Positions 561 to 45,050 of a stretch of DNA of 64,000 nt are shown in pieces. Within the stretch, counting starts at the first letter, position 1. Each line of letters begins with the position of its first letter. A model generated the notes under the pieces. That model was not told where the DNA came from. It did not search any database and saw nothing but the letters and a program-made list of their open reading frames with translations. The translations under genes were made by a program, and so were the position numbers. Source of the stretch: a virus (lineage: Duplodnaviria; Heunggongvirae; Uroviricota; Caudoviricetes); the IMG/VR virus record IMGVR_UViG_3300046006_001304. One strand, 5' to 3'.

Positions 561-1187
561 TTAATCCATTGTTCCGGTTTCTACCGAGTATATTCTTAAA
601 CTTGCGTTGCCAGTTGTTGTTGCGGTTGCCGTTCTAGTTCCTACAATTTCAATCAAACTAGTTGTTGGATTGCGGTCTACGGTAAATGTCATCAGTGGGG
701 CTACACTAGTGTGCGTTACACCATATACAGATATTACAGGTACGCTAGTATTATCCCAACCTCTTACGGCAATGACAGCCTCACACATCTGTGTTTCCCA
801 ATTGCCAGTGCCGCCAGTTTCTTCTGCTTCCACTTGGATGGTCAGTTTAGCACCGCTAATAAAAGTTTCAGTAGCAGTCCATACTATTTGTGTTAGTACT
901 GTGGTGACGAGATTATTTGTTGTTGTTTTAATAAAACTACCACCAGCATCTGTCAGTACGCCGCTAGCATTGAGTACAACTTCGTTAAGACCGTTGACTA
1001 GTCTGTCCCCAGCACCGCCTGCTCCTGGTTGGAAGTAAGTCAATGCCGCCCATGTACTAGCACCATCACCTAACTTAAACTCACCTGATGTTAAGTTAAC
1101 ACCAATCTCGCCTGCGCCTAGAACAACAGTACTATTAGTAGTCCAATTTGCGGCAGTATCTCTTCTTAATTTTATTTGCGTTGCCAT
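561..1187 (-). CDS. Tail-fibre-associated structural protein (208 aa)
   Basis: Co-directional and tightly packed with the giant fibre gene. Gly/Thr/Val-rich beta-rich composition. The antisense + ORFs here are rejected. Confidence 0.6.
   Translation of the reverse strand: MATQIKLRRDTAANWTTNSTVVLGAGEIGVNLTSGEFKLGDGASTWAALTYFQPGAGGAGDRLVNGLNEVVLNASGVLTDAGGSFIKTTTNNLVTTVLTQIVWTATETFISGAKLTIQVEAEETGGTGNWETQMCEAVIAVRGWDNTSVPVISVYGVTHTSVAPLMTFTVDRNPTTSLIEIVGTRTATATTTGNASLRIYSVETGTMD

Positions 1188-1468: not shown

Positions 1469-1469
<1 letters not shown>
1200..1469 (-). CDS. Small fibre-module protein sharing the N-terminal motif of the giant fibre (MTKQVINTGTAANAKNGDPIRTAFEKVNANFDELY)
   Basis: Its N-terminal ~35 aa closely parallel the N-terminus of the 3740-aa protein ([35 protein letters not shown]). 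Its stop overlaps the upstream gene. Confidence 0.6.
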
Positions 1470-12984
<11,515 letters not shown>

Positions 12985-13040
12985 ATTAGGTCCTTGTTAT
13001 GATATTTATCAATACCATTTTATAACCTTAATGTAAATAC

Positions 13041-13331
13041 ATGATGTATATTAGCGTTGAATTTGTTAACACTCCGCACTATCGTAAAAGCAAATACGGT
13101 ACAATGCATACCTATATGCGTAAAAAATCAGTATTAGTAATGAGGTGCGATAGTTGCCAAACAGTATTTAGGCGTGACAAGGGCAACATGTCTCCTAAGC
13201 GAGTAAGCGACAAATATTACCATGTGTGTGGTGATTGTGATGCTAAGAAGTTTGCCCAGAGTAAGGGCGTTGAAGCACGGCGAGTTTGGGATATGCCCGC
13301 TAGTAGTCTTAAGACGCTAGGCCAACTGTAG
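13041..13331 (+). CDS. Small zinc-ribbon-like protein (CDSCQ...CGDCD)
   Basis: 96 aa with two CxxC pairs. Convergent with, and overlapping the 3' end of, the SOD-like gene. Confidence 0.4.
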   Translation: MMYISVEFVNTPHYRKSKYGTMHTYMRKKSVLVMRCDSCQTVFRRDKGNMSPKRVSDKYYHVCGDCDAKKFAQSKGVEARRVWDMPASSLKTLGQL

Positions 13332-13869
13332 CACTAATGGCATTCCAGTTGATAATTTTCCATTGATTTTCTAAATATCTTTTCTTATCTGACTGATAAT
13401 CTAATGCCCAAGCGTGTTCCCACCAGTCCACAAGTAGTACAATATCTTGTTTAATTTCGTGATTAACGATCGTTTTAATTTTACCATCTCGAGCTAGGTA
13501 CACCCATCCACTGCCTTGAATACCCATCGCAGTCTTAAAAAAGGCTTCTTTAAAGCGGTCAAACGTTTTAAAGTGTTTAGTTATAAATTCTCCAATTGGC
13601 CCATCTGGAGTATTAGTACTTGTTGGTGATTGATACTGACCAAACAAAATACGGTGTAAAAACGCACCCGCTTCATTAAAGTCTGCGTCACCTTCTCCGT
13701 CATTAAAACGAGTCACGTATGCTTTGTATAACTTACCATAATGATAGTTAATAGTATCTTCGCTCAATGCCGGCTCTAACTCGTCCTTAGCGTAAGGCAG
13801 TTTAAATAGTTCTAGCGTTTTAGGCGTTTTGCCTTCGTTAAGCGTAATATGCTTGATAAAGTTATACAT
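13309..13869 (-). CDS. Fe/Mn superoxide dismutase-like protein
   Basis: 186 aa. Signature DWWEHAWALDY (the D-x-WEHAYY motif). N-terminal ...LPYAKDELEPALSEDTINYHYGKLYKAYV matches the SOD N-terminal helix, but the usual HH / KHH pairs are HY / KLY here. Confidence 0.7.
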   Translation of the reverse strand: MYNFIKHITLNEGKTPKTLELFKLPYAKDELEPALSEDTINYHYGKLYKAYVTRFNDGEGDADFNEAGAFLHRILFGQYQSPTSTNTPDGPIGEFITKHFKTFDRFKEAFFKTAMGIQGSGWVYLARDGKIKTIVNHEIKQDIVLLVDWWEHAWALDYQSDKKRYLENQWKIINWNAISATVGLAS

Positions 13870-15452: not shown

Positions 15453-15959
15453 TTACGCAAATAAATCTTCATTCCATTCACGGTGACCTTCAGTAAAGGC
15501 CATGTTGCTTTGAGTTTCACGTACTTCTACACGATAGCACCATAGACGCTTTGCTTCGCCATCACCCCACATGTCTGGAATGTAAACACCATTAACATAC
15601 TTGTACAGCATTTCACTAAGACCTTCACATCCTAGTTTTGGTAAAACAACTATCTTAGCCATTTTCTTTTCTACTAACAGATTGTATGTTTCCATTTCTG
15701 GATCATCTGCGGCTACAATAAGTGTATGATCAAATTGATCTTCTAAAATCTTTTTGAGTTCTTTTAAACCACCATAGTCAGCCGCCCAATTGCGGACATC
15801 TAGGTCGTTAGTGCCAAAGTAAAATTTCATGCTAAATGAATAGCCGTGAATTAGATTACAGTGACTATCAGCTCGCCATTGGCGATAGGCGCAAGGAAAT
15901 GCGTCGTGATATTCTTTTGTGCTTGTATACTTATAAGCGACAGGTTGTAAAGTTGCCAT
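15453..15959 (-). CDS. queD: 6-pyruvoyl-tetrahydropterin synthase / QueD-like (6-carboxy-tetrahydropterin synthase family)
   Basis: 168 aa. Catalytic Cys followed by the HGH-like triad region (...ADSHCNLIHGYSFSMKFYF...). Size and motif order typical of PTPS/QueD. Confidence 0.7.
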   Translation of the reverse strand: MATLQPVAYKYTSTKEYHDAFPCAYRQWRADSHCNLIHGYSFSMKFYFGTNDLDVRNWAADYGGLKELKKILEDQFDHTLIVAADDPEMETYNLLVEKKMAKIVVLPKLGCEGLSEMLYKYVNGVYIPDMWGDGEAKRLWCYRVEVRETQSNMAFTEGHREWNEDLFA

Positions 15960-16062
15960 TGTTATATCTCCTAGTTAACAATGACACGCAGAGTTTATAT
16001 TCCGGGATGAGCGTCTAAGTCCGGATATAGTAATTATACGCTTTTATAGCGTAAAGTCAATA

Positions 16063-17514
16063 TTATTGGCGAACAATTGCCCCAAACGGTAACCATGTCC
16101 CTGGCTCACCAGTAGCAACACATACCCAACCGATATAAGTAAATTCGGCAGGATTAGAGTTCCAACAAATATCGCCTTTAGTTGCTAATCCAGTTACAGG
16201 CGCACTCGCTCCAGTTGTAAATTTTTTATCAGCAAAACTAATATTCCCTTTAACTGCTAAATCTACAGTTGGGTCAGGATTATTAATTCCAACACTTAGC
16301 GGTCCAAATACTTTAACAACTCGTCGACTATTTAATTTGTTACCGATTTCAATTTTTAAATCGTCTGCGTAGAAAGCCTGATGGCCATCGACGTTAACAG
16401 CAAACGAGTCTGTACCAGACACTGACTTTACTGCTAGTGATTTAACAGTAATTGCGTCAACGTCCACTGGCCCTAAGAATTTTGACTCACCTTTAACTAC
16501 TAATGATGTTAGTGCGCCAACTGCTGTTAAGTTAGATTCTGTTACATTTGGCCCAAGTCCGTGTGCGGATAATACAACGGAACCGTTAATATAATATTGT
16601 TTATCTTGTGCTAGTTCTAATGATTCTGTTGATAGTAGTCTATCGGGGTTGGCTTGAATTGTTAGTTGTTTTGCTGTGCCGTTACCCAACCATACTAGGC
16701 CTTTTCCATAAATGTTATCATCGCCGGTTGCTCTAAATTCTAATGACGTTGATTTTTCTAATCTAGTATCAGAAATTATGTTTTCAGCAAACAGTGTTCC
16801 GTATACACGTAACACACCGTTTTTATAACGTTCTTCACCAATGTGAACCTCACCATCATTTTTTACAGTAATTCGAGCAGTATTATCTGTTACTAAGGCT
16901 AGGTCGTGATTGGTATAAGTTCCAACAGTGGCCAATCCTACACTTGGAGAATCGATAATGATTTCAACATCGTTTTCAACAATGCTTAGGACACCGTGTG
17001 GGTTTTCAATGTTAATTCCAACACGATTAACTGATGAGTTAAAGAACGCAAACTCACCAATAGTAGCATCACCGTCTACGGCTAATTTCTTTAAATTACC
17101 AACTTCTGTTAAGCTACTCTTTTTAACTTGTGTACCTAGTTGAGTTAGGCCAATAACAGTGGTGTTATCAATTTTATAAGACTTATCACGGTTAAGGTCA
17201 ATGTCCCCGTTGGTCCAAACTCTGCCACCGTTTTTATAAATTAGCTGTACATTACCCAGACCCCAAGTCCAACCTAATCCCTTGCCGTTTAGTTCTTCTT
17301 CGGTGTTAACAGTCCACTGACCAACACCTTCAATTGTACCGGATTCTGTAATTAAGTTTTTAACTTTAACGGTACCGGCTGTTATAGTACCACCTACAGC
17401 GAGGTCGCTACTAACAGTAAGTGTTCCGTCATGTGTTATCGCACCCGAAGTTGATTCTAAAACTAAGGTTTTTATAACAATTTTATCGTCTTGGATAGTA
17501 AGCAAGTTGGTCAT
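16063..17514 (-). CDS. Tail fibre / receptor-binding-type structural protein (483 aa)
   Basis: Thr/Val/Gly/Asn-rich beta-rich sequence with short repeated strands. C-terminal ...ICWNSNPAEFTYIGWVCVATGEPGTWLPFG. Confidence 0.55.
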   Translation of the reverse strand: MTNLLTIQDDKIVIKTLVLESTSGAITHDGTLTVSSDLAVGGTITAGTVKVKNLITESGTIEGVGQWTVNTEEELNGKGLGWTWGLGNVQLIYKNGGRVWTNGDIDLNRDKSYKIDNTTVIGLTQLGTQVKKSSLTEVGNLKKLAVDGDATIGEFAFFNSSVNRVGINIENPHGVLSIVENDVEIIIDSPSVGLATVGTYTNHDLALVTDNTARITVKNDGEVHIGEERYKNGVLRVYGTLFAENIISDTRLEKSTSLEFRATGDDNIYGKGLVWLGNGTAKQLTIQANPDRLLSTESLELAQDKQYYINGSVVLSAHGLGPNVTESNLTAVGALTSLVVKGESKFLGPVDVDAITVKSLAVKSVSGTDSFAVNVDGHQAFYADDLKIEIGNKLNSRRVVKVFGPLSVGINNPDPTVDLAVKGNISFADKKFTTGASAPVTGLATKGDICWNSNPAEFTYIGWVCVATGEPGTWLPFGAIVRQ

Positions 17515-18767: not shown

Positions 18768-18806
18768 TTCTACTCCTGTTTGTTTAGCAATACATGTATT
18801 ATACGT

Positions 18807-19976
18807 TCATTCTGAGGCATTGTCAACCGAGTCTTCAAGCAATCTAGTAATATCCGGAACCATTTTGAGTATATCTAGATTACGTTCTTTGGCTAATGAT
18901 AACGATCTTTCCCAAAATTCTTTGATATCACTTTTTGGAGTCTTTAACAATTCAACTATTGATCTTTTAAATGGATTACCCTTGTCTATATTCCAATTAC
19001 CTTGTATAGTAGATTCCCACTCTGTTAGTTGTCTTGTTAACAATATTTTTTGATTCGGCGGAATAATTGATAACATTTGCCATTCTCTTCCAGATACCCA
19101 GTCCCAATCTAACTCCCATTTGGGATAATTATTAGTCATAAACATAATAAATTGGTCTAATGTAAAAATATTATAAACGCTGATAACGCTATGTATGGTT
19201 AGTGTAACATTGTCTTTTGTGCCCCACCATTCGTTATATTGATCCATCACTTGTTGTACTTCTGTAAATTTGCTTGGCCAACGATACCAATCATTCACAG
19301 ATCCTAGACCATCTAAACTTACATCCAAATATATTGAAGCACATTGATCCATTAACGATTTTAATTCGCTATTCGGTAAACTAGTTCCGTTTGTCGATAC
19401 TAATAGTTTAATCTTAGATAAATCTAATTTTTTCATAAGATGAATAAATCTATCCTGATCCATAAACGGCTCACCGCCAAATATCTTTAGTGTAGTTAAC
19501 TGACTTAAATCTAAGTTGTCAACTATTGAGGTCGGGTGATCTATAAGAACTTTTATTTCTTTTCCTATCCTGCCTGCTTTATAATCTTCAGTACCCCATG
19601 TTGTTGAGTATTGTCTACTACAACTGACACACGCAAGATTACACAAGTTACTAAAAGCAATATCTAACATTTTAATATGACGTAATTCTGTTGTGGTGGG
19701 TAATTCAGTATCTTGTAAACTATAAGTTCTTGTACTCATACCACCAGCATCTTCTTGTTTATAACATTGCTGACATGCTGTATTTTTTTTACCAGATAGC
19801 ATGTCTTCCTGTAGTTCACGCCAGGGTGTTGATTTTCTAAAATCAATTGATACTGTACTGCCTTCCAAAAATTCTGTGGAAGGCCAAAATCTACAACAAG
19901 GTTCCGCCCTACCACCTGCTCTAATAGCAATGCTATCCCAGGGTAGCAAACACATTGCTCCGTTATCTGTTTGCAT
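18807..19976 (-). CDS. Radical SAM enzyme with N-terminal SPASM-like Cys-rich domain
   Basis: N-terminal C-x8-G..PCC..W.....CQQC (SPASM/twitch-like pattern), then SNLCNLACVSC (CxxxCxxC) and FGGEP SAM-binding motif. Confidence 0.75.
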   Translation of the reverse strand: MQTDNGAMCLLPWDSIAIRAGGRAEPCCRFWPSTEFLEGSTVSIDFRKSTPWRELQEDMLSGKKNTACQQCYKQEDAGGMSTRTYSLQDTELPTTTELRHIKMLDIAFSNLCNLACVSCSRQYSTTWGTEDYKAGRIGKEIKVLIDHPTSIVDNLDLSQLTTLKIFGGEPFMDQDRFIHLMKKLDLSKIKLLVSTNGTSLPNSELKSLMDQCASIYLDVSLDGLGSVNDWYRWPSKFTEVQQVMDQYNEWWGTKDNVTLTIHSVISVYNIFTLDQFIMFMTNNYPKWELDWDWVSGREWQMLSIIPPNQKILLTRQLTEWESTIQGNWNIDKGNPFKRSIVELLKTPKSDIKEFWERSLSLAKERNLDILKMVPDITRLLEDSVDNASE

Positions 19977-22404
19977 TAATCATCCAATCCATTTCTTCTG
20001 TTGCGTAAACTTTTATTTTTTGTTCGGCATTTTGATCATGGAGACCTTGTACTGCTACACTGTTTAGAGATGGGAACAACTGTTTAAACTCGTTATAACA
20101 TTTTTCTGCTAGATCTTTATATCCAGGCTCCAACATAATCCGTACACCAATCCACATTGACGATGCCGGACCGCCGTCTGTTCTAGCTTTTAGAACAGCA
20201 TCTACTGCTCCTCTAACCGCTTTGGTAAATTTTTCTAATCCAAATTTTTCAACGTATCTTAAATGAATGCTAAATGTTATACTACTGTACTGTGCTAACT
20301 CTGCGTAATATTGTTCTGTTGCGCTACCGTTAGTTGTTGTAGAAATAGTATGACCTTTTTCTCGTAACATTTTAACAAACGGCAAATAATCTTTATAGAT
20401 CGCAGGTTCGCCTCCAGTAAAACTAAATTTGGCCTTAACATCTTCAATCCAATACTTATTTAAATTTTCATAAGCATGAGTAAGCTCTATTAAATTTTTT
20501 TGCTGTTCATAATTGTTGTGACTGTTTTTACTACAGTACCAACAATCAAAATTACAACGTCTTCCTAGATCCCATGAAATAAACTTATGTCTATGAAAGT
20601 CCTTAGAAAAAATTATTTCAGGTTGGATACTACTTTCTGGGACCGGGTTGAGTAATTTAACACGGGCTCTAGTTTTAAGAGTAGGAAAAAAAGTTGCTAT
20701 GTGCTCAACTTTTTTTACCTTTGGAGTATTCATATCTGCAGCACAAGAACATAATGTTTTTGTACAAGTGACCCAATTGCCAGCTTTTAAATAAATTCCT
20801 TGGTCTAATCCTGTTGCTACGTGTACATTACCAACAAACCCGCCAACTCGGCAAGTGCCGCGCCACACATTGCCATCAAAGTCTATATATATCGAATTAA
20901 GGCCGGTACTACAATGCCAACCCTTCCAATTATTTCTTGATGTAGTATGAAGTGTTTCACCATCTACATAGGCAAAGTTCATAGACGCATCAGCTAATAC
21001 TAAATTTTTATGATCAGTTTTACTATCTTGATTATCGATTTTCCATTTGCCTACTTCGTCTGTTCCAAACAACACTCCTATTTGAAATCTATCTATAACT
21101 GTCTTTTTAAACGTGTTGTATATTTCAGTAACTTCTTCAATAGTATGATCAACAAACAAAAAATCTGTAGAAAAAATGTTGCTGTAATAAAAGAATACTT
21201 CTTCGTGTTGTGATCGAACTAGTAATTTTTTAACACTTTCAGGGTCATATAAATTACACTGAGCAAATTTTATGTCGCACTCTTTAAATCGTTGCCACAA
21301 CTCTTTAAAATGTTCTTCACCGCCAAATTGTCGATGTAACAATGCTTCATTGCTTTCAAAATTGCCGTGAACAAATCTAAATTTAGATTTAAAACTATCA
21401 TCTTGATTATTTAAAAACGTAACAATGTCGTGACCGTCCCAGTTTTCTACCAAATGCTGTAGCCAGTCTAAACTTAATTGATTGTAATCGTAAAAAATAA
21501 ATTTACATCGTTTATTATACAGCAGTAAGTCTAAATACTTAAAACCTGCAGCTGGACCAAAGTATGACTTGATACCTTTTAAAGAAACTTCAAATCTGTA
21601 ATTCTCACTATTAAACACCCATATTGGAATATCTTTAGTTAGCGACTTAATCCATTTCTTTTGATTAGGATTAGTTAATCGTGTAAAGTCTTTATCTGTT
21701 GTTGATTTAAATAAGTTATCGCTGTCGGTTTCTGGGTACACAAACAATCGACAGTCTCTCATCTCCTGAGTAAAATTATCAATTTTAAGTCCGTGACTTA
21801 ACCCAGCCTTAATAAATCCCCACCCCTGAGCAGTTCGGGTACTAGTAACTGTACCCGGTTCTCCCTTGATCCAGTAAGGTGTATATTTGTCATGGAAGTT
21901 TTCTTCGGAACGACTATACACAGGCAACTCTTCAGTAACGGTTTCCCACTTACCAAATTCTGGTGATCCAACCTTTTTCCAAGTTGCTACATTAACAAAC
22001 ATCATTTGATGATGGCATTCTATCCATCCTACTCCTCTTTCTGGAAACCAGTCAAGGGTAAACGCAACTAGATAAAAATCAGGGTTATCATTATAATAAG
22101 TTGCTAGATGCTCTAGCAAGACGTTAAATCTAATAATATTCCCAATTGATTGTATTAACACTACGTCATAATTATTTTTATCTGCGTACAACATTGCATC
22201 GTCTACGGTATCAAACGATTTTAAATCGTTAGGATAATGGGTTGTACATCTGCTAGTCTTTGTATACGTATAGTCGTGCATCCGTTGAAACAACCCTGGA
22301 TGTTTAAGTTTTACGTTAGCTTGATCGACAATAGCAAACAGTGGCCGTTTATTTCCGAAAAAATTCAATCTCTTGTAAATTTTAGTATGCTGTGGTTTTG
22401 TCAT
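19963..22404 (-). CDS. Large multidomain protein (813 aa): N-terminal unknown domain, mid SPASM-like Cys cluster, C-terminal radical SAM core
   Basis: WHCSTGLN...FDGNVWRGTCRVGG...CTKTLCSC followed ~50 aa later by RRCNFDCWYC and FTGGEP. Confidence 0.7.
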   Translation of the reverse strand: MTKPQHTKIYKRLNFFGNKRPLFAIVDQANVKLKHPGLFQRMHDYTYTKTSRCTTHYPNDLKSFDTVDDAMLYADKNNYDVVLIQSIGNIIRFNVLLEHLATYYNDNPDFYLVAFTLDWFPERGVGWIECHHQMMFVNVATWKKVGSPEFGKWETVTEELPVYSRSEENFHDKYTPYWIKGEPGTVTSTRTAQGWGFIKAGLSHGLKIDNFTQEMRDCRLFVYPETDSDNLFKSTTDKDFTRLTNPNQKKWIKSLTKDIPIWVFNSENYRFEVSLKGIKSYFGPAAGFKYLDLLLYNKRCKFIFYDYNQLSLDWLQHLVENWDGHDIVTFLNNQDDSFKSKFRFVHGNFESNEALLHRQFGGEEHFKELWQRFKECDIKFAQCNLYDPESVKKLLVRSQHEEVFFYYSNIFSTDFLFVDHTIEEVTEIYNTFKKTVIDRFQIGVLFGTDEVGKWKIDNQDSKTDHKNLVLADASMNFAYVDGETLHTTSRNNWKGWHCSTGLNSIYIDFDGNVWRGTCRVGGFVGNVHVATGLDQGIYLKAGNWVTCTKTLCSCAADMNTPKVKKVEHIATFFPTLKTRARVKLLNPVPESSIQPEIIFSKDFHRHKFISWDLGRRCNFDCWYCSKNSHNNYEQQKNLIELTHAYENLNKYWIEDVKAKFSFTGGEPAIYKDYLPFVKMLREKGHTISTTTNGSATEQYYAELAQYSSITFSIHLRYVEKFGLEKFTKAVRGAVDAVLKARTDGGPASSMWIGVRIMLEPGYKDLAEKCYNEFKQLFPSLNSVAVQGLHDQNAEQKIKVYATEEMDWMINANR

Positions 22405-23069
22405 AAGTTAAAAAACTCTTGTGTGTAATGTCCATGGACAATAATATGATATCTAACTTCATTGCTATTGTTGATAACAATGTGATCGCGCCCAACATCT
22501 AATATCATGCCAGTCCCAGCTTCAAACGGAACTATTCCTTTATCTTTGAATACAAATTGACAGCCTGTAGGATTGTTAATAGCAATGTTAAGAGGACTAA
22601 ATGCTCTTTGATTTTTATTATCAGTATGTGGCATTATATATCCACCTGGCGCAAGACGCATTATTCTAACACGATCAAATAGTTTATAAGGTAAATTGCT
22701 TAAAAATTTATGTAAGTTAGGGACTAACTCGCATACATCGGTCCAACAATAATTTGCTTCTTCTAAACTAGTAAATCCATATTTTGTATAATGTTCAGTC
22801 TTATGTTTATCAATGCCGTGTAATGTAAGACTTTGCCAGCCAAAATGGCCGTACCCAGACTTTTTATCTTGGCTTCTATGATCAAAGTATAAATGATCTA
22901 CACTTTGACATTCTTTTAAAAAAAGAGCGGTATCAAAATTAAACTTTACAGGATAATACGCACACTCGACATCCTTTTGTGATTCAACAACAGATGAATG
23001 AACTGAACTATTAAGCTCTTTGTTTGTGTTGTAAAATTCTAAAAGTTCATTTGGAAATTCAAAACTCAT
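22401..23069 (-). CDS. AspH-like (aspartyl/asparaginyl beta-hydroxylase family) cupin Fe(II)/2OG oxygenase
   Basis: PGGYIMPHTDN...RAFSPLNIAIN...CQFVF...VPFEAGTGMILDVGRDHIVINNSNEVRYHIIV matches the HxD...H cupin order of the AspH family. Confidence 0.55.
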   Translation of the reverse strand: MSFEFPNELLEFYNTNKELNSSVHSSVVESQKDVECAYYPVKFNFDTALFLKECQSVDHLYFDHRSQDKKSGYGHFGWQSLTLHGIDKHKTEHYTKYGFTSLEEANYCWTDVCELVPNLHKFLSNLPYKLFDRVRIMRLAPGGYIMPHTDNKNQRAFSPLNIAINNPTGCQFVFKDKGIVPFEAGTGMILDVGRDHIVINNSNEVRYHIIVHGHYTQEFFNL

Positions 23070-24105
23070 TATCTACTATCCTAATATCTGAAATATGATT
23101 AAACTTACTCCACACATTTAGATTCCAGTCTTTAGTATCTGTAATAGCTGTAGCAAATGTATAAACTGTGCTGTCAAAAGAATAGCTGTTTAAAGCACCA
23201 ACAGGGATAAACCCAAGAGCAAGGTCTTCCAGCCTCATTCGCGGATCCATAATTTCTGAAAAATTATTATCCATCCACCATTTATATAAAGATACCCTAG
23301 CATGGTGCGGACTATCTTCTCTAAAACTCATATATGTTTCTGCGGCAAATCTTTTTTGTGGTCGGATTGCTTTTCTATGAACAGCCTCTAAGTCGTTATC
23401 GTTACACGCACTCGCCCAATGCTTGCCTAAAGTGTTGTAACCTAAGTATACCCACCCCCATTTATGTTCAGGGTCAAATAACAAATAATCCTCAGGCTTT
23501 AGTAATTCGTGTAGATAGTCTTCCGGCATAACATCTTTAGGATCTTTATTGGGCAAAAAATCCGCCAGGCATGTGCATATTGATTTTTCTCGCCTATTCC
23601 AAGTTCTAAATATTGCTTCAAAGTTATGTATTTGCTCATTCAGTCTTAGGAACGCTTCGTGGACACTTTTGTCGTGTACATCCCCGGGCCACACGGTATT
23701 GTAATCAGGACTTAATTTAGGATTATCAAAATAACCGTCAGCAATAAACTTTTCTAATCGATTGCCATAAATTTCATATTCTTCGTGTAGGTCGTTTAAT
23801 ACACCAGCATCGTTGCGTAATTGATCAACAGATTCAACCTCAGTTAACCGTCGGTCATAGTTATTGTTTATAAATTCAATATTAGATTTGAACGCTACTA
23901 GTTGCTCTTCAATTTCAATATCTGATAGAATCTTTCTATAATTATATCGTAAGGTATTACCTAGCTCGTTATTTTTGTTTATTAAATTAATCCATCTATC
24001 AGCGATGTCAGTATCAAGTATTGAATATCTTAATTTTACAAATTTTCTTGATTTAGTGCCTTGACAAGTAATTTCTAAATACTTGTCTTTCTTCCATATA
24101 TTCAT
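23059..24105 (-). CDS. Hypothetical protein (348 aa) in radical-SAM operon
   Basis: ORF translationally coupled to both neighbours (4-11 nt overlaps). Confidence 0.5.
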   Translation of the reverse strand: MNIWKKDKYLEITCQGTKSRKFVKLRYSILDTDIADRWINLINKNNELGNTLRYNYRKILSDIEIEEQLVAFKSNIEFINNNYDRRLTEVESVDQLRNDAGVLNDLHEEYEIYGNRLEKFIADGYFDNPKLSPDYNTVWPGDVHDKSVHEAFLRLNEQIHNFEAIFRTWNRREKSICTCLADFLPNKDPKDVMPEDYLHELLKPEDYLLFDPEHKWGWVYLGYNTLGKHWASACNDNDLEAVHRKAIRPQKRFAAETYMSFREDSPHHARVSLYKWWMDNNFSEIMDPRMRLEDLALGFIPVGALNSYSFDSTVYTFATAITDTKDWNLNVWSKFNHISDIRIVDNEF

Positions 24106-25406
24106 AACGATGCGCCCTCAACGCTAAGTTGGACATCTTCCATTTCTGGAATTGTCTTAAATGTATCTTCGCCTCGAAGTTTATCAAGTTGCGCAGTAGT
24201 TGATAAAAATCGTTTTGCTGATTTAAGATCAAAGGGTTTTGTTAATTCGTGTAGAATATGAGTAAACTGTTTGCTTATATCAGTGTTGTACTTAGTATTA
24301 TGAGTTTCTATAAACACATTTAATTTTTCAATAGTATCTTTTCTATATTGATCTGATAAAATTGAAACATGATAATGCGGTGGATGTTCAATTAGATTAA
24401 TAAAAAAATTATTATAATTTATAAGTTTAGATTTAGGATGACTTTTAATAACGCCAATTTCAGTTAGATGCGTAATAATTTCAGGGAGTCTTGCTACATT
24501 CCATGCGCCTGTAGTAATACCAGGTCGAAGGATTATGTTGTCGTGTTTAGCTAGCTCTTTTAGATTCTCTTCTACTTTATGCCATACTGTGCCGGACCGA
24601 ATTAATTCAGCACGATCACCAATTTCGTCAATGCTAGGCCATACTTCAAGTTTACCAAACTTCCACTGTTTCCAATAGTCAATGACATTTTTCTTGCCGT
24701 GTGTTAACGTCAAGCAATTAGTGTTATATGAAAGTTTTACATCAAATCTTTCATTGTCAACTAACATATCTAAGATTTGCCAATGTTCGGGCATAATTAA
24801 CGGTTCGCCGCCCGCAAAGTAAATTCTTTTTACGTTTTTGATTTGATCCTTTAAAAAATCGTAGTTTGTTTGTTCGTCAACATTTTCAATACTCCAAACT
24901 TTTTCTTGATCAGTATACCCTAATTTTTTAGCATCAGGTACCCATGCTGAACTGTAACGTGGTCCGCAACTGCGACATTTCATGTTACATAGATTACTAA
25001 AACGGAAATCCCAATAGTTTAATTCCATTTCAGTACAAGTGCCGTCTTCTAATGTTATACTTGGAATCTTTTCCAATACTTCCGGAAAGTCTCTATTTTG
25101 ATAAGTCCGACCACTTTCACCTGTAACTTTCTCTCTGTTAAAACACTTATCGCAGACTGTTGGTTCAACGCCGTTAATCATATCTTTCCTCAGTGATTTC
25201 ATATTATCACTGTTCCAGATCTCTTCAATAGTATCTTTATTGAGGTCGCCGGCAAAATAACTATGTGCCGAAGTTAAACAGCACGGCACAACTTTACCGC
25301 TTGGTTCGAACGCAAGATGCATCCACGGTACCGCACATAATGTCTTAGTTTGGACTTCTTTTACAATAGGTATAATTTTATTCATACTGTACTTATTTCC
25401 ACGCAT
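24102..25406 (-). CDS. Radical SAM enzyme with N-terminal SPASM-like Cys-rich domain
   Basis: LCAVPWMHLAFEPSGKVVPCC...EIW...CDKC then FSNLCNMKCRSC and FAGGEPL. Confidence 0.75.
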   Translation of the reverse strand: MRGNKYSMNKIIPIVKEVQTKTLCAVPWMHLAFEPSGKVVPCCLTSAHSYFAGDLNKDTIEEIWNSDNMKSLRKDMINGVEPTVCDKCFNREKVTGESGRTYQNRDFPEVLEKIPSITLEDGTCTEMELNYWDFRFSNLCNMKCRSCGPRYSSAWVPDAKKLGYTDQEKVWSIENVDEQTNYDFLKDQIKNVKRIYFAGGEPLIMPEHWQILDMLVDNERFDVKLSYNTNCLTLTHGKKNVIDYWKQWKFGKLEVWPSIDEIGDRAELIRSGTVWHKVEENLKELAKHDNIILRPGITTGAWNVARLPEIITHLTEIGVIKSHPKSKLINYNNFFINLIEHPPHYHVSILSDQYRKDTIEKLNVFIETHNTKYNTDISKQFTHILHELTKPFDLKSAKRFLSTTAQLDKLRGEDTFKTIPEMEDVQLSVEGASL

Positions 25407-25430
25407 GAGAAATTATTCTAGATGTGAATA

Positions 25431-26288
25431 CTAAGTCCAGAGGCTGTCACGAGCCTTAATAAGACGAATCATCATAGCTTCATCTTCTGCTTCATAACCC
25501 TCTTCGATCTTTTGAAGCAACTTATGAGCCTTATCGCTGGCCTTTTTAAGCACAGGATCTTTTGGTGTGCTAAAACTCAACTTACCGCCGTTAGCTTCAC
25601 GTTGTGCTTCACAGGCGGCAGTCCAACCACTTGCGTCATATGGATCAGGACGAGCACGATAGGTCACAGTCCACCACACATAAAGCTCTTTGAGTTCTTT
25701 AGCACGGAGAGCCTGTCCAGTGGGCTTGCCGTAGTCTGGATGTTCTGGGCCACACCAGTCAGTGTTAGTCAGTGTCATTGCCCAGTCAAGATGATCGATA
25801 CCTGCTTGAGGGCAACGCCAAGTACGCCAACGGAACCAACCAGTAGCGTAAAAGGGAGGATCATACTTAGCACGAGCTTCCTTATCTCCCCAGGCGATGT
25901 GCGACCAAGCGGATTCAACTTCGACGAAATCAACCAACTCATTAAATAGGCATGGCAGGAACCGATTGCCAACATCACACCAGTTGCCAGGCTTAATATC
26001 ACGAGCATGGGCGGTAAGAGAGTGAGTACGAGTAACCCAACGGTTATTGATGTAATACTTAACATCGTAGATCTTTCTAACAGGCCAAGTAACAAAATCC
26101 TGGATATAGCCTAAGGCCTCTTCAGCTAGCCAGTAACGAAAATTGTGCTTCATCTGAGCCGCAGTGGTCCAGTCATCCCATTCTTCACTGGTACCCGCAC
26201 TCAATTTCTTAGTGCCGCGAAGCCAATCTGCGAACGGTGTGCATGACCAGTAGTTTGTGTGATGTGCCATCTTATTTTCTATCGCCAA
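25431..26288 (-). CDS. Hypothetical Trp-rich protein (285 aa)
   Basis: Long ORF; first gene of the minus-strand operon. Confidence 0.45.
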   Translation of the reverse strand: MAIENKMAHHTNYWSCTPFADWLRGTKKLSAGTSEEWDDWTTAAQMKHNFRYWLAEEALGYIQDFVTWPVRKIYDVKYYINNRWVTRTHSLTAHARDIKPGNWCDVGNRFLPCLFNELVDFVEVESAWSHIAWGDKEARAKYDPPFYATGWFRWRTWRCPQAGIDHLDWAMTLTNTDWCGPEHPDYGKPTGQALRAKELKELYVWWTVTYRARPDPYDASGWTAACEAQREANGGKLSFSTPKDPVLKKASDKAHKLLQKIEEGYEAEDEAMMIRLIKARDSLWT

Positions 26289-28865: not shown

Positions 28866-28916
28866 TATATTAGACCTTTAGTTAACTGTTTAAGTAACTA
28901 TTATACTGTCTAATTA

Positions 28917-29645
28917 TCAATAAGTCAAGTGATTTGTTGTCTTAAATGGCTTGCCGTAGTAAGCATTTTCTAGCTGAGTCATTATTTTACGCTTCATTTG
29001 GACTACTTTTGGATGGGTATGATCATACTCAAAAGACTTCATAAAACGTCCCCAACCGTTTGGGCGGACTCTTTTTGGTACAGGACTATCCAAATATTCT
29101 CTGATAGCCTTTGGATCAAAATCAAACTTGTCAATCATATCCTGGGCAATATTAAATGAGTGTGCGCCCATTTCGTCTCGGTGACCGTAGTATTCTTGCC
29201 AAGCACGATCTTTAGCATAGTAGGCAGTACTTTCGTATCCAGGAATATCTTTGAAATTTCTAGCCCGATATTGACGAGTATGGATTATTTCATGAAGTAC
29301 TGTATCAGCAAATAAATGACACATACGTTCCCAACGATACAAACTAGTTTTCATGCTGTCAGCAGTAGTTGGAAATGCTAGTTCAACTTCGATAAATCGT
29401 TTCTTGCCTTGCTTATCATCGTCACTATAATATGCCCCACCGATCCAAACTTCGCCAGGTTTGACGGGCTTGTGTCTGTGACTTCGAACTTTGATTGGAA
29501 GGTGTGATTTAACATGCTTACTTATAATGCTGGTAATTTCACCTATAGGTAAGCGTCTATCTACAATCTCAGATTTGAGTTCGTAAATCATCGAGTACAA
29601 TATATTTCGATCCAACGCGGACCAATTAAAGGCTTGACGGGCCAT
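28917..29645 (-). CDS. HExxH-motif protein (putative SprT-like metallopeptidase fold), paralogue of 37966..38634
   Basis: ...VLHEIIHTRQY... shares a block with ...TVHEYKHQRQ... in the second copy. Confidence 0.45.
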   Translation of the reverse strand: MARQAFNWSALDRNILYSMIYELKSEIVDRRLPIGEITSIISKHVKSHLPIKVRSHRHKPVKPGEVWIGGAYYSDDDKQGKKRFIEVELAFPTTADSMKTSLYRWERMCHLFADTVLHEIIHTRQYRARNFKDIPGYESTAYYAKDRAWQEYYGHRDEMGAHSFNIAQDMIDKFDFDPKAIREYLDSPVPKRVRPNGWGRFMKSFEYDHTHPKVVQMKRKIMTQLENAYYGKPFKTTNHLTY

Positions 29646-40125: not shown

Positions 40126-40980
40126 ATGAAAATTGAATACCCGTACAACGATTGGACACCAGTAGTTTTTGGTGATGTTAGGACCTTTACCGATGCTGAC
40201 ATACAACAGTTAGGGGTTGCTCTAGCTGAAGAAATTATGGTCTTATTCAGAGGCCAAACCTTAACTCCCCAAGAAGAAGTTGATTTTGGTGCTCGATTTG
40301 GCACCTTAGAAGACAAATCGATTGTTAATGCTAAAAACAAACGAGCAATTAATATTGACGGTATGGGCGGGCTAATTAGTCGGGTAACTGGCAAATTGAA
40401 TGAAGACGGAATGCCGGGAATACACGGCGGTGTATCTGCGTTAGATTGGCACTGTAATAGAGCTTGGGATAAGAACAGAGATCCTGTTGTGTATTTGTAC
40501 AGCGTCGAAGGTAGCGCAGGAAGTAAGACCAGCTGGGGGAATTATGTAAAAGCATATAACGAATTACCTCAGGAGTGGAAAGATCGACTTGCCAATCTTA
40601 AAGTTAAGACTGCCCAAACATACAGTAAGTATTCTGAGATGGGGAAATATTTTGGAGTTCCAGATCAACCAAGTAATTGGTCAGTTAATATTATTACAAA
40701 AAATCCTGCGGGGAAAACTGTTATATTCTTTCCGTGGAATCAAATGGATGGCATTGCGGATGTATCCCCTGAAGAAGATAAAGAAATTACCGACTTCTTA
40801 ATAAATTATCTACTACAAGAAAAATTCACTTACCATCACGATTGGGAAGACGGTGATATCATTATTGCTGACCAGTGGAGCGGAATGCACAAACGCTGGG
40901 AATTTGAAAAGATGGCAGAACGAGTTTTACATAGAATGGCATTCAACTATGATAAAATTCGCCTGCCAAATCAAACTTAA
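40126..40980 (+). CDS. TauD/TfdA-family Fe(II)/2-oxoglutarate dioxygenase-like protein
   Basis: 284 aa. LDWHCNRA (HxD-type) ... SKTSWGNYVKAYNELPQEWKDRL ... C-terminal His region, parallel to the TauD motif order. Paralogue of 58669..59544. Confidence 0.55.
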   Translation: MKIEYPYNDWTPVVFGDVRTFTDADIQQLGVALAEEIMVLFRGQTLTPQEEVDFGARFGTLEDKSIVNAKNKRAINIDGMGGLISRVTGKLNEDGMPGIHGGVSALDWHCNRAWDKNRDPVVYLYSVEGSAGSKTSWGNYVKAYNELPQEWKDRLANLKVKTAQTYSKYSEMGKYFGVPDQPSNWSVNIITKNPAGKTVIFFPWNQMDGIADVSPEEDKEITDFLINYLLQEKFTYHHDWEDGDIIIADQWSGMHKRWEFEKMAERVLHRMAFNYDKIRLPNQT

Positions 40981-42335
40981 TCTTTAGAAAACTTCCTTGA
41001 CAACAGGTATCCAATTAAAGGAATACCTAGTCCACACAGCATAGCATATAAATCAAACTCGGGAGTTTTAGTCATCTTTGATTGTATTGAAAAATACAAG
41101 GCCGATGCTATTCCTAAAATTGACGAGTAGAAAATCCAGTTTTCACTTAACTTTCTATCTAGTGCGTGTAATACTAGCGGCACAAACATAGTGGCTCTAA
41201 CAGCAGACATTAATACAAATAGCGTCCAGATATCAATCTTAAGCCACGACACTAACCAGACCGCAATTAAAAATCCAAACATGAACAGTCTAGATACTCC
41301 AACGCTTTCTTTGTGGGTCCAGTCAATTGACCCTAGACTTGCGATATAGTTTAACGCTGAATCAATAACAGTAGATGCTTGTCCAATTAGTAAAATACCA
41401 AATATTAATAATCCACCTACACCTACATAGGTTCCGATGCTAGTTAACGTAGCAAAGTCTGGAGAAGTTATAGCAATACCGTTACTAAATGCTAGTAAAC
41501 TTAGTGATCCAAGAAAAAACACAATTACAGCAAACACCGCAGATGCTGTCAAGTAACTGGGTATAATATTTTCTCGGGGCATACTAAATGCCTTTTGCCA
41601 CATCATACCGTGACTAGTTGCTCCTACAATCATTGTAATAACGTAGGTAATACCAAACGTGGTTAAGAATTTCCAATCTAGTACAGATTCAAGATTGTTC
41701 TGCCCTAGTGTAAAAATTCCATTGTCAGTAGCATTCATACCGATGATAGCACATGTTACAAAGAATATTACCCACGCAGCCGATTGAAATGCTCCGGAGA
41801 ACACACTGGTCCTAATACCGCCACGCATAGTGAATACCAATGTAATAACACCCACAGCTAGCGTAGCGTAGTAAGGGGCAATAGAATTGATTCCAGCAAA
41901 TGCCCAAAACTTTTCAATCGCAATAAACGCTAACAAGATTGCGTAAAATGATACTAAGATAAAGTCTAATTGATACAAGCCGCTAAGACGTTTGCTAAAA
42001 TTATCTTGAATGTATTTTGTTAACGAATACCCGTCTGGATACTTGTTCCTGATCTTGTATGATATTAATCCAACAACCGCAATGCTTAGGGCGTTAGGAA
42101 TTACAAACCAAATTAGTCCATATAATCCCCATTTGTAAGCAACCGCTGGTCCAACAAACATTGCAATGGCAAAGAACCAGTGGCTACAAATAGCCAAACT
42201 TGATTCGGCAATTCGTAGTGATCGATTAGCAAATAAAAAATTGGTAAACGTAGAGCTCCATTGTTTACCTAATATAAATGTAGTCCCTAAAATACCCAAT
42301 AAAAATATTAATGAGTAGGTAGTTAAGTGTTCCAT
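40977..42335 (-). CDS. Multi-pass membrane transporter (SSS/APC-like, ~12-13 TM)
   Basis: 452 aa, almost entirely hydrophobic helices. Confidence 0.55.
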   Translation of the reverse strand: MEHLTTYSLIFLLGILGTTFILGKQWSSTFTNFLFANRSLRIAESSLAICSHWFFAIAMFVGPAVAYKWGLYGLIWFVIPNALSIAVVGLISYKIRNKYPDGYSLTKYIQDNFSKRLSGLYQLDFILVSFYAILLAFIAIEKFWAFAGINSIAPYYATLAVGVITLVFTMRGGIRTSVFSGAFQSAAWVIFFVTCAIIGMNATDNGIFTLGQNNLESVLDWKFLTTFGITYVITMIVGATSHGMMWQKAFSMPRENIIPSYLTASAVFAVIVFFLGSLSLLAFSNGIAITSPDFATLTSIGTYVGVGGLLIFGILLIGQASTVIDSALNYIASLGSIDWTHKESVGVSRLFMFGFLIAVWLVSWLKIDIWTLFVLMSAVRATMFVPLVLHALDRKLSENWIFYSSILGIASALYFSIQSKMTKTPEFDLYAMLCGLGIPLIGYLLSRKFSKD

Positions 42336-42375
42336 GTCAAATCCTTTTAAGTGGAATATTTATAGCGATAAGTAG

Positions 42376-43308
42376 TTGATGTACGCACATTATGGAATCA
42401 ACTACGATCCGACCAACTTTAAAATCTGGTATTCTCATTGCCAACGTCCGTCAGCTACGTGGACAGAGGAGATTAAAAAATCTGCTCAAATGTTAGCAGA
42501 CTCAACTGATCGAGATATATGGATATGTATGAGTGGCGGAATTGATAGCGAAGTTGTTGCTAAAACATTTAAAGATTTGGGAATACCATTTCGTGCGTTA
42601 ATAGCTCAGTTTCCAGACAAGTTAAACGAGCATGACATTGTGTATGCTCGTCGATGGTGCGAGTATCACAATGTTGAATATAAATTGTTTGACTTTGACA
42701 TGCTGAACTTTATAAAACAAGGCCACACTAAGTATCTTAAAGATGGACTAGTATCCAATAATATCTTTAGGTATTTTTGTATAGAGATGTTACAATGTAT
42801 TGAAGACATGAACGGTTTTGGAATACTAGGTGGAAAGAGTGTTGGACTTGGGCTATTACAAAAAGATAAAGATATTGTAGATCCCAACAATGATCCAATT
42901 TACGACAGTTATGATATTGGATCATTAGCACCAATAGAATGGTGCCGTAGAAACAATCTTAATCATTGTGTTTTCTTTTATCAAACAAGTTCAGAAATAC
43001 ACAAGGCTTACTTAAATGATCCTATCAATCAAATGTTAATCAATAATCCCTATATGTTGCGAGCTTCATCAGCTAACGAAGCCGCCAAGACATTAATGAT
43101 GAGATCACATTTTCCGTTTACTGTGCCAAGAACAAAGCATCATGGCTTTGAAAAAATTATGGGTATTAGGGAAGAAGCACAGAAAAATATGGCTAGGTAC
43201 TTTGGTCTTGATCCAGAGACTGATAACAAACGTTTTAAGTTTGTATTTTACAATGACCATATATCTATTCCCATAGGACACGTATTGGACCAATTACATT
43301 ATGAATAA
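42376..43308 (+). CDS. PP-loop ATP pyrophosphatase (adenine-nucleotide alpha-hydrolase superfamily) paralogue 1
   Basis: DIWICMSGGIDSEVVAK (SGGxDS P-loop-like motif). 310 aa, no glutaminase domain. Confidence 0.65.
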   Translation: MMYAHYGINYDPTNFKIWYSHCQRPSATWTEEIKKSAQMLADSTDRDIWICMSGGIDSEVVAKTFKDLGIPFRALIAQFPDKLNEHDIVYARRWCEYHNVEYKLFDFDMLNFIKQGHTKYLKDGLVSNNIFRYFCIEMLQCIEDMNGFGILGGKSVGLGLLQKDKDIVDPNNDPIYDSYDIGSLAPIEWCRRNNLNHCVFFYQTSSEIHKAYLNDPINQMLINNPYMLRASSANEAAKTLMMRSHFPFTVPRTKHHGFEKIMGIREEAQKNMARYFGLDPETDNKRFKFVFYNDHISIPIGHVLDQLHYE

Positions 43309-43948
43309 CCCTCAGATATTATTTGCGCTCAGTAGTTTCCATAGTTTTGATTCACGGCTATTGGTAATATCTGATCGTGTATCAATATTAGAATGGCTTC
43401 GAGAAACTATTCCAACATATGAGTTTAGAGTTACTACAAACTTGTTGCCAATGAATGGTTACACTAAAGAACTTACATATACTAATAGTCACCTTTATAA
43501 GACTATAGATCAGAATGTAATGTTACAGAGTAATGCTAACAGCGAGATTGTAGAAATGAGCAACTTATGCAGATCGTGGTACGAAGGTTATATTAAAATT
43601 AATAACACAATTAGTCATCAGCGCAAACATTTGGGCGCCATGTGGATGTTTTCCTTACAAGATGTAGTGTACCAAGAAAAAGTTAAAGAAGCAGAAAAAG
43701 TATTAAACAACCAAACGGAAGATTTGAAATTCCTTCCATCAGAAGCAGGTTATAAAAAGATGTCTCTTCGAGAGCTAGCCGACCGAGTATTAGTAGAACA
43801 CGAAATTGCGATGGGCTTCCTAGCAAGAACTGAACACTTGCGAGTCAAGTGGCTTGACACTTTGAAAGCATCAACTAGCATTGCTAAACACAAAGAGATC
43901 CTAGTAGGGTTTAATAGAGAATTATATGAATACCATCTCATGTCCTAA
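43301..43948 (+). CDS. Hypothetical protein (215 aa)
   Basis: Translationally coupled ORF inside the island. Confidence 0.45.
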   Translation: MNNPQILFALSSFHSFDSRLLVISDRVSILEWLRETIPTYEFRVTTNLLPMNGYTKELTYTNSHLYKTIDQNVMLQSNANSEIVEMSNLCRSWYEGYIKINNTISHQRKHLGAMWMFSLQDVVYQEKVKEAEKVLNNQTEDLKFLPSEAGYKKMSLRELADRVLVEHEIAMGFLARTEHLRVKWLDTLKASTSIAKHKEILVGFNRELYEYHLMS

Positions 43949-45050
43949 TATTTTATTGTTTAACAGTATTGTAGCCGAGGAACAGTTTAGAGGGTTGCCC
44001 GGGGTACATCAGTGGTCTAAGACTAGAAAAATTTGGGGGCATAACGGCTCTATGATTGATCGCACTGGTGTAGTACAGTTGCCGTTTAAAACAGAATTTT
44101 TAGATTCTATGCGGATTCCAGACATCCCTCAGAATTTTTCAAAAACATTAGAACAATGTTGTGTTGAACACGCACGGACAATAGTCGACCAAGCAGTGGG
44201 TACAGATCAAACAATTTCTATACTATGGTCCGGCGGCATTGATTCTACATGTGCGGTGTCTAGTTTCTTAATGTGTACTACTGCCCAAGAACGCACCCGT
44301 ATCACAATCTTACTTAACAGAGAAAGCATTCTTGAAAATACTAAGTTTTATCAAACACACTTGGTAGGGAAATTAAATTGTAAAAGTAGCAACACTTGGG
44401 AATCATATATACGTCCAAATAACATATTTGTCACAGGTGAAGGTGGCGACCAGGTCTGCTGGAACGGGTTTACTAGAGCATCGGATACTATATTCAATGT
44501 ACTAGGATGGGATACGCTTAAACAGTTTGCCAGTGCCGACTTAATGATCAAGGTACTTGAAATGGTAAGCCTTGATAAAGAGTCGGCAACTATAGGGTAT
44601 GAGCGTGTGCTTGAACCCCTAAGGCAAAACTCAGTTGTTCCTGTAAATACAGTCGGCCAGCTATTATGGTATTTTAACTTTGCCGCTAAATGGCAAAACG
44701 TGTATCTTAGAACACTGCTAAACTTAGTAGACAACTCTGTCATAACTGATAACTATATAGCAACGAATTTTAAAATGTTTTTCCAAAGCAGTGATATACA
44801 AATTTGGACTATGTTAAACAATGAAAGCACAGTGTTAGTTAACAAGTTTACAGACATCAAGATGCCGTTAAAGCAAGTAACATATCAGTATGATAAAGAT
44901 GAATACTACAGAGAGCATAAAGTAAAAATTGGAAGTCTAGGACGATTATCACGTATGCGTCCTAATATAGGGTATTTAAAATCTAACTGGGAGTTTTCTC
45001 CAACAGTTGATATTGACCAGTATTACAATAACCAGAATAGTTTTATTTGA
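43926..45050 (+). CDS. PP-loop ATP pyrophosphatase paralogue 2
   Basis: ISILWSGGIDSTCAVSSF. Confidence 0.6.
   Translation: MNTISCPNILLFNSIVAEEQFRGLPGVHQWSKTRKIWGHNGSMIDRTGVVQLPFKTEFLDSMRIPDIPQNFSKTLEQCCVEHARTIVDQAVGTDQTISILWSGGIDSTCAVSSFLMCTTAQERTRITILLNRESILENTKFYQTHLVGKLNCKSSNTWESYIRPNNIFVTGEGGDQVCWNGFTRASDTIFNVLGWDTLKQFASADLMIKVLEMVSLDKESATIGYERVLEPLRQNSVVPVNTVGQLLWYFNFAAKWQNVYLRTLLNLVDNSVITDNYIATNFKMFFQSSDIQIWTMLNNESTVLVNKFTDIKMPLKQVTYQYDKDEYYREHKVKIGSLGRLSRMRPNIGYLKSNWEFSPTVDIDQYYNNQNSFI

Follow-up and report, generated by a model that had tools for sequence, protein, structure and literature searches.

The DNA analysed here is a stretch of 64,000 nucleotides (nt), hereafter the window, from the Caudoviricetes virus record IMGVR_UViG_3300046006_001304 in IMG/VR. 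A cassette on its minus strand, at positions 18807 to 26288, encodes three radical S-adenosylmethionine (radical-SAM) enzymes in which a predicted auxiliary-cluster domain of the Twitch type lies before the radical-SAM core. In two of them, proteins of 434 and 389 amino acids (aa), this N-terminal-Twitch layout is already curated, as family NF033640 (N_Twi_rSAM), and common. The C-terminal 343 aa of an 813-aa protein make up the third enzyme, which sequence comparison assigns to a family of its own, uncurated and related to SkfB. The predicted Twitch domain of this family, ~75 residues long, may precede or follow the core, a natural circular permutation. In the lineage of the window phage, the coding sequence of the N-terminal-Twitch enzyme has been joined to the 3' end of another gene, which encodes a module with GT-A glycosyltransferase-like and methyltransferase-like folds (GT-A/MTase), and many uncultured large phages share the cassette. 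Three things are new: the SkfB-like family with both connectivities, its GT-A/MTase fusion, and a widespread phage cassette that is defined here. Three Twitch-first enzymes, a permuted third family, a fusion, and a conserved cassette with a possibly glycan-linked function together make up what we consider the likely overall explanation.

Six minus-strand open reading frames (ORFs) were found at 18807-19976, 19963-22404, 22401-23069, 23059-24105, 24102-25406, and 25431-26288, encoding 389, 813, 222, 348, 434, and 285 aa, respectively. Their coordinates and strand are exactly those given in the original prediction, which was made from the sequence alone. The features of the three radical-SAM enzymes are as follows, with positions in the window.

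24102..25406, minus strand: 434-aa radical-SAM protein, N_Twi_rSAM member (NF033640, 361.9 bits against a cutoff of 170, aa 21-424).
25143..25337, minus strand: N-terminal Twitch domain of the 434-aa protein, aa 24-88 (PF13186, E 6e-13, profile positions 1-66 of 67), with C24, C42, C43, C85, and C88, the last lying 52 residues before the triad.
24966..24989, minus strand: triad CNMKCRSC of the 434-aa protein, aa 140-147, with GGEP at 199.
18807..19976, minus strand: 389-aa radical-SAM protein, second N_Twi_rSAM member (NF033640, 210.4 bits against 170, aa 7-378).
19764-19952, minus strand: predicted Twitch domain of the 389-aa protein, aa 9-71, with C9, C27, C28, C68, and C71, the last lying 41 residues before the triad.
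19620-19643, minus strand: triad CNLACVSC of the 389-aa protein, aa 112-119, with GGEP at 167.
20710..20937, minus strand: predicted SkfB-type Twitch domain of the 813-aa protein, before the core, aa ~490-565, with C498, C518, C547, C552, and C554, the last lying 63 residues before the triad.
19966..20586, minus strand: radical-SAM core of the 813-aa protein, aa ~607-813.
20533-20556, minus strand: triad CNFDCWYC of the 813-aa protein, aa 617-624, with GGEP at 664.

All three proteins have the hallmarks of the radical SAM superfamily (a CxxxCxxC triad, GGE(P), and a partial (beta/alpha)6 barrel). The original prediction had placed a cysteine motif 40-60 residues before the triad and a GGEP motif after it in each protein; the three triads and their GGEP motifs lie where it put them, and the observed gaps are 41, 52, and 63 residues. 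A single isolated cysteine follows the triad in each case (C231 in the 434-aa, C212 in the 389-aa, and C769 in the 813-aa protein), so no C-terminal SPASM or other auxiliary-cluster domain has been overlooked. Together with the profile hidden Markov models (HMMs), which place the match N-terminally and not C-terminally, this upholds the central claim that an auxiliary-cluster-type domain precedes the core in all three. The canonical position of a Twitch domain is C-terminal to the core; in the window it is N-terminal in three of three proteins. A full SPASM domain holds seven or eight cysteines, including CxxCx5Cx3C, and a pair of clusters (Aux I plus Aux II). Here each protein has five cysteines before the triad, TIGR04085 was matched at 23.2 bits (under its cutoff of 27), and the PF13186 match of the 434-aa protein is through the first half. 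With five cysteines and no CxxCx5Cx3C second-cluster motif, the domains are therefore of the Twitch (one-cluster) type known from SkfB, BtrN, and MoaA and not full SPASM, so the earlier label SPASM-like was right about the relationship and too broad about the type. The remaining Twitch features, a Cys-flanked beta-hairpin and a downstream Cys pair giving three to four ligands, are predicted to be present, and each Twitch domain would bind a single auxiliary iron-sulfur (Fe-S) cluster.

Both the 434-aa and the 389-aa proteins match NF033640 ('N_Twi_rSAM, twitch domain-containing radical SAM protein') end to end, with its N-terminal C...CC...CxxC domain followed by CxxxCxxC and GGEP. In contrast, the 813-aa protein matches this model via the core alone (36.4 bits, positions 109-226) and is not a member. 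The Pfam order in the 434-aa protein is SPASM (PF13186) at aa 24-88, then Radical_SAM (PF04055) at aa 136-288. The N-terminus of the 389-aa protein aligns with PF13186 in register over aa 9-71 at a sub-threshold E of 0.012, and the two proteins are 24% identical over 421 aa. The N_Twi cysteine pattern, C-x17-CC...CxxC, matches the first half of the SPASM profile; its cysteines (C10, C28, C29, C71, and C74) are invariant in eight N_Twi sequences that are 21-66% identical to the window protein. Homologues of the 434-aa protein numbered 4,841, and the best 120 of these (69-93% identity) all have the SPASM-then-Radical_SAM order (120/120). The JGI label for these homologues is "radical SAM protein with 4Fe4S-binding SPASM domain." A PDB sequence search with the 434-aa protein gave nothing useful and no solved structure for the N_Twi architecture, and a literature search found no paper that describes or characterises an N-terminal SPASM/Twitch architecture.

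The domain swap in the 813-aa protein was seen directly in BLASTP comparisons with two stand-alone radical-SAM proteins of 314 aa and 313 aa from locus L003, a homologous cassette on a different phage contig, which gave two high-scoring segment pairs in swapped order: aa 17-198 of the stand-alone protein correspond to core aa 609-810, and aa 217-311 correspond to Cys-domain aa 471-562. A search with aa 471-813 returned 1,794 representative clusters. Among the best 150 of these, the Cys domain lies before the core in 84 (N-type) and after it in 59 (C-type), and 7 are fragments. A joint alignment of 20 N-type and 20 C-type sequences (37% mean identity) contains nine invariant residues, namely W, G, G, G, and five cysteines. 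No curated NCBIfam model was matched at cutoff by either form.

The relationship to SkfB (PDB 6EFN), a sactisynthase whose Twitch domain is C-terminal to the core, unlike that of the 813-aa protein, was traced through the canonical-order homologues. A profile of 51 full-length C-type proteins is collinear with the SkfB core plus Twitch domain (profile 21-306 to chain 112-393, E 5.3e-13), and SkfB is the sole PDB match of this profile that reaches into the Cys domain. When the profile of the Cys domain alone was aligned with the SkfB Twitch domain (aa 325-396), every cysteine fell in register; the spacing is C-x19-C-x28-C-x4-C-x-C in the 813-aa protein and C-x17-C-x28-C-x4-C-x-C in SkfB. The Aux-I ligands of SkfB are Cys351, Cys385, and Cys387, and an unliganded cysteine lies before the hairpin (PMC6231123); all four coincide with invariant cysteines of the family. 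A further canonical-order relative is NF038073 (rSAM_STM4011). Positions 198-253 of its 278 are matched by the N-terminal domain of N-type proteins (E 2e-7 and 9e-7, sub-cutoff), and its core matches C-type proteins, so the order of the segments is swapped in the N-type. The window protein is not a member (12.6-37.7 bits against a cutoff of 200).

An AlphaFold2 model of aa 471-813 is a confident single body, with a predicted local distance difference test score (pLDDT) of 92.8 and a predicted template modelling score (pTM) of 0.91. It contains a beta-hairpin (E34-37/E42-44) between the first two cysteines, C28 and C48 in the numbering of the C-terminal half, and six beta/alpha units beyond the linker. 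In cellular genomes, full-length N-type matches were found almost only in metagenome-assembled genomes of the Bdellovibrionota (profile scan, 10 sequences; loci L090-L117).

The remaining part of the 813-aa protein carries the module to which the permuted enzyme is fused.

20995..22404, minus strand: N-terminal 470 aa of the 813-aa protein, with GT-A glycosyltransferase-like and class-I methyltransferase-like folds.

This module is usually a separate protein of 450-470 aa. The homologues of the 813-aa protein number 87. Only 8 are full length (51-90% identical); the remaining 79, with lengths of 450-470 aa or ~590 aa, stand alone and match aa 1-455. The Twitch-before-core order is kept in all eight fusion homologues. 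In the ~590-aa variants (P0012, P0017, P0022, and others), an extra C-terminal segment with VIDVGCSGG, a methyltransferase motif-I-like sequence, replaces the radical-SAM half. The C-terminal half of the window protein shares 43-48% identity with N-type proteins that stand alone (P0208, L031) and only ~24% with the C-type pair of L003, so the permutation is older than the fusion. A fusion formed directly from a tandem 314/313-aa pair, as in L003, was rejected on this same low identity. A tblastn search of a phage genome collection with the GT-A/MTase module gave no match.

Scanning IMG/VR with the GT-A/MTase module gave 79 loci. In most of them the gene order is [604-aa] - N_Twi radical-SAM protein(s) - 338/348-aa - accessory radical-SAM protein - AspH-like - GT-A/MTase - [270-aa] - [180-aa]. 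One N_Twi copy is present in 13 loci, two in 21, three in 9, four in 3, and six in 1. The accessory radical-SAM protein has a C-type Twitch domain in 46 cases and an N-type in 2, the N-type being found solely in the window-like fusion (L011) and in L031 (stand-alone, 343 aa, 43% identical to the window C-terminal half). The two connectivities thus look like alternative accessory radical-SAM enzymes of one conserved cassette, which suggests but does not prove that they are equivalent in function. L001 and L002, whose 813-aa protein is 90% identical, have no gene for the 389-aa protein; given this absence and the unfused variants, the content of the cassette changes rapidly. L056, L060, and L062 carry an unfused GT-A/MTase gene, a C-type radical-SAM gene, and a 270-aa gene. 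L076 (1091-8888) encodes six consecutive N_Twi-type paralogues (404-454 aa) upstream of a 348-like gene, each with an N-terminal C...C(C)...CxxC pattern. L003 encodes three paralogous ~270-aa proteins starting LRVYGDSF (8497-9333, 11370-12188, and 12217-13029), which are reminiscent of SGNH/GDSL hydrolases; the one protein of this type that was scanned had no Pfam match. A megablast search of the region against 50,697 phage genomes gave no match, so this collection holds no cultured close relative.

The other genes of the cassette, and a promoter-like site at its 3' end, are the following.

22401..23069, minus strand: AspH-like Fe(II)/2-oxoglutarate oxygenase, 222 aa (Pfam PF05118, E 8.7e-11, 42.3 bits against a cutoff of 22.6).
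23059..24105, minus strand: 348-aa protein, constant downstream partner of the N_Twi radical-SAM protein, no family match.
25431..26288, minus strand: protein of probably 279 aa (285-aa ORF) preceding the cassette, no family match, probable start at 26270.
18798..18826, minus strand: candidate sigma-70 promoter, a perfect match to the consensus TTGACA-17-TATAAT (12/12), upstream of the gene for a 402-aa protein; a consensus match only.

The AspH-like hydroxylase had been predicted as part of the operon, and its family membership is borne out by the PF05118 score and by the HxD...H residues in its sequence (MPHTDN...YHIIVHG). Its gene adjoins that of the 460-aa/GT-A protein in most related loci; a PDB sequence search with it gave nothing useful. 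The 348-aa protein had zero matches in Pfam, NCBIfam, PHROG, or PDB, and its 127 homologues are all annotated 'hypothetical'. Most of the 79 IMG/VR loci have an ORF whose best match is this protein or its 338-aa counterpart in L003. The 285-aa ORF has a TTG start at 26288 that overlaps the Bax1-I gene; it is called as 278-279 aa in related contigs, and in identical contigs the call begins six codons later, with an ATG at 26270, which is probably the start of a 279-aa product. The protein has no family match in Pfam, NCBIfam, or PHROG, and among the related IMG/VR loci its gene lies upstream of the N_Twi gene only in L019, L056, L060, and L062.

At four of the junctions between the six genes, the stop codon of one gene and the start codon of the next overlap by 4-14 nt, and a gap of 24 nt separates them at the remaining one, so the genes are tightly coupled. 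The run of genes extends upstream without a break through Bax1-I, MazG-like, and ligase genes; the operon is therefore one without a demonstrated start at 26288. The view of a single coupled operon thus held for the coupling and not for the upstream limit. Matches of 11/12 to the sigma-70 consensus were also seen at 28900-28928 (minus strand) and 16033-16060 (minus strand), upstream of the ligase and PTPS genes, and the total count of promoter-like sites in the window is no higher than in shuffled sequences.

The window is part of a ~276-kb contig of an uncultured jumbo phage, and the 402-aa gene next to the cassette is similar to genes of PA5oct-like jumbo phages. The surrounding genes include the following.

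561-1187, minus strand: 208-aa ORF with a tail-fibre-type N-terminus and a tail-fibre/virion PHROG match.
1469-12691, minus strand: 3740-aa ORF matching the giant tail-fibre PHROGs 5342 and 4527.
12661-12984, minus strand: IscA/HesB-like Fe-S assembly protein (Pfam, identical contig).
13309-13869, minus strand: Fe-superoxide dismutase (Pfam, identical contig).
15453-15959: PTPS/QueD gene.
16063-17514: 483-aa ORF with a tail-fibre/virion PHROG match.

Given the three fibre-like ORFs (3740, 208, and 483 aa), the cassette sits in a fibre/host-recognition region. The IscA-like and Fe-superoxide dismutase genes, a few kb from the cassette, plausibly support oxygen-sensitive Fe-S enzymes. A second dense island of redox and tailoring genes lies at 40126-59544. 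It includes two TauD genes, a TctC-like gene, and an NMO-like gene, genes for a Rieske oxygenase, for two PP-loop proteins of the QueC-like kind, and for a fatty-acid desaturase, and a further AspH-like gene. It also encodes two radical-SAM proteins of ~480 aa whose long N-terminal extensions contain no Cys and are not Twitch domains.

Several results weigh against the overall explanation, and they concern both the identity of the domains and the function of the cassette. The two kinds of N-terminal domain (N_Twi and 813-type) showed no similarity in hhalign (probability 0.4%), and BLASTP of the 813-aa C-terminal half against the 434-aa and 389-aa proteins gave no match at E<=0.01. After the hhalign result, the claim that all three proteins are co-operonic paralogues was dropped in favour of two N_Twi_rSAM members and one protein of a separate SkfB-like family. 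Pfam SPASM (PF13186) does not match the Cys segment of the 813-aa protein even at E<=10, for which reason the identity of the domain was drawn from the canonical-order homologues. The profile score of the isolated domain to SkfB is weak (E 0.057), and in the AlphaFold2 model, the predicted clustering of the five cysteines and the placement of the domain against the barrel are read from pTM, pLDDT, and secondary structure. The cassette function is likewise read from gene context alone, searches with the 348-aa and 285-aa proteins gave no functional clue, and characterised Twitch and SPASM enzymes also use peptides. The gene context of a Bdellovibrionia N-type homologue (L090) consists of FolD, GcvT, and two further radical-SAM genes after the N-type gene, and no glycan genes were found there. 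Structural zinc sites unrelated to SPASM/Twitch, with the permutation a coincidental accretion of domains, would account for some of these observations: four to five cysteines arranged as C...C...CxxC could bind zinc, and Pfam SPASM, besides missing the 813-aa domain, is sub-threshold for the 389-aa protein. However, PF13186 matches the 434-aa protein at E 6e-13, NF033640 spans both N_Twi proteins, and the 813-type domain is the same domain that is C-terminal in homologues, where it is collinear with the SkfB Twitch domain, Cys for Cys. A beta-hairpin predicted between the first two cysteines is moreover a hallmark of Twitch domains. The profiles thus relate the domains to SPASM/Twitch rather than to an unrelated zinc ribbon, and the zinc explanation is highly improbable. 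As to the suggestion that the architecture is unusual or permuted, it holds literally for the 813-aa family, and the layout of the 434-aa and 389-aa proteins is the one already curated. How the order changed is a separate matter. Domain shuffling, in which a mobile Twitch module was attached anew on separate occasions, instead of duplication, fusion, and truncation, would fit the age and abundance of both the N-type and the C-type forms; the higher identity of the C-terminal half to N-type than to sister-cassette C-type proteins also means that no recent intermediate is seen in this lineage. On the other side, sister loci, L003 among them, carry C-type paralogues in tandem, head to tail, and fused double-unit proteins exist, the intermediate expected for permutation by duplication. 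These proteins (P0298, P0322, and P0331; ~650 aa) consist of a core, a Twitch domain, a second unit without the CxxxCxxC triad, and a second Twitch-like domain. Domain shuffling is accordingly regarded as rather doubtful.

For the three enzymes themselves, the auxiliary cluster would pack on the open side of the barrel, near the two chain ends of the core, and the closeness of these ends is proposed to let either connectivity be tolerated. The cluster could serve in electron transfer or in substrate anchoring during 5'-deoxyadenosyl-radical chemistry. Tentatively, the cassette may oxidatively tailor a sugar, glycan, or glycoprotein tied to host recognition, on a fibre or on a host surface polysaccharide. 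One hint is the presence of GT-A and methyltransferase folds in the module fused to a radical-SAM enzyme. The fibre genes beside the cassette are a further hint. Another is Vibrio phage K566, in which four N_Twi radical-SAM genes are interleaved with a pair of GT8 genes that exceed the Pfam cutoff and with a gene that matches GT4 weakly. The Vibrio phages K566/K567 (OZ196521) resemble the window phage in having a cluster of four N_Twi-type paralogues, which share 21-28% identity with the window proteins. They differ in having GT8/GT4-like neighbours instead of the 348-aa, AspH-like, and GT-A/MTase genes, and no permuted SkfB-like enzyme was seen in them. Twitch enzymes such as BtrN, SpeY, AprD4, and BlsE act on sugars, and SkfB and EpeE act on peptides. 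A 'host recognition cluster' with variable radical-SAM cassettes and GT8 genes has been described in pelagimyophages (Zaragoza-Solas et al. 2020, PMC7029224). The pelagimyophage and cyanomyophage cassettes share with the present one their position near giant structural/tail-fibre genes, and an AspH-like gene is common among them; that work notes the cassettes without domain analysis or function, and the window phage differs from those phages in its jumbo size and its PA5oct-like neighbour. Maturation of a ribosomal peptide or protein is also conceivable, in the manner of ribosomally synthesised peptides with post-translational modifications (RiPPs), with Twitch radical-SAM enzymes making thioether or C-C crosslinks or epimerising residues and the AspH-like enzyme hydroxylating Asp/Asn. 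The closest solved relatives of the permuted family do include the peptide modifiers SkfB and EpeE, PF05118 is named for Asp/Asn beta-hydroxylation of proteins, and the arrays of radical-SAM paralogues recall multi-maturase RiPP clusters. However, the gene overlaps and the 24-nt gap leave no intergenic room for a precursor-peptide ORF within the cassette, and the Pfam and NCBIfam scans of the three radical-SAM proteins listed no family of the RiPP recognition element (RRE) type, although no dedicated RRE search was made. NCBIfam equivalog models of RiPP maturases were far under their cutoffs, and one of the enzymes is fused to a GT-A/MTase module. Having neither a precursor ORF nor an RRE-type family in the scans makes a classical RiPP role less likely, and we judge it unlikely; a large protein substrate such as a fibre may be involved, which overlaps with glycoprotein tailoring. 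PF05118 also includes the lipid hydroxylases LpxO and OlsC. In favour of a role in remodelling host envelope lipids, with the AspH-like protein as an acyl-chain hydroxylase, or in modifying nucleotides or DNA, rather than glycans or fibres, the window has at 40-60 kb a fatty-acid desaturase gene together with TauD, Rieske, and QueC-like ones, and it also has the PTPS/QueD gene. These genes, however, are at least 14 kb from the cassette (the lipid- and nucleotide-type genes) and outside the conserved cassette of other loci. Pfam and NCBIfam scans found no membrane-anchoring or nucleotide-binding family among the cassette proteins, none of the three radical-SAM proteins reached the QueE cutoffs, and this explanation is very unlikely. 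A more specific form of the tailoring proposal is directed at the virion: the AspH-like enzyme would hydroxylate tail-fibre or giant-fibre proteins, the GT-A/MTase module would glycosylate or methylate them, the Twitch radical-SAM arrays would tailor or crosslink these proteins or glycans radically, and gain, loss, permutation, and fusion of radical-SAM genes would diversify host recognition. It is speculative and quite improbable as a whole; if true, phage receptor-binding structures would here have their first modification pathway that depends on radical-SAM enzymes.

For annotation, the membership of two of the three proteins in a curated family corrects the impression of an unprecedented architecture. 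The SkfB-like family provides natural circular-permutant pairs, sometimes in the same cassette slot, and such pairs can be used to test the role of auxiliary-domain position and connectivity in folding, cluster assembly, and electron transfer. The product of the cassette, once identified, could reveal a new modification of the virion or of the host surface.

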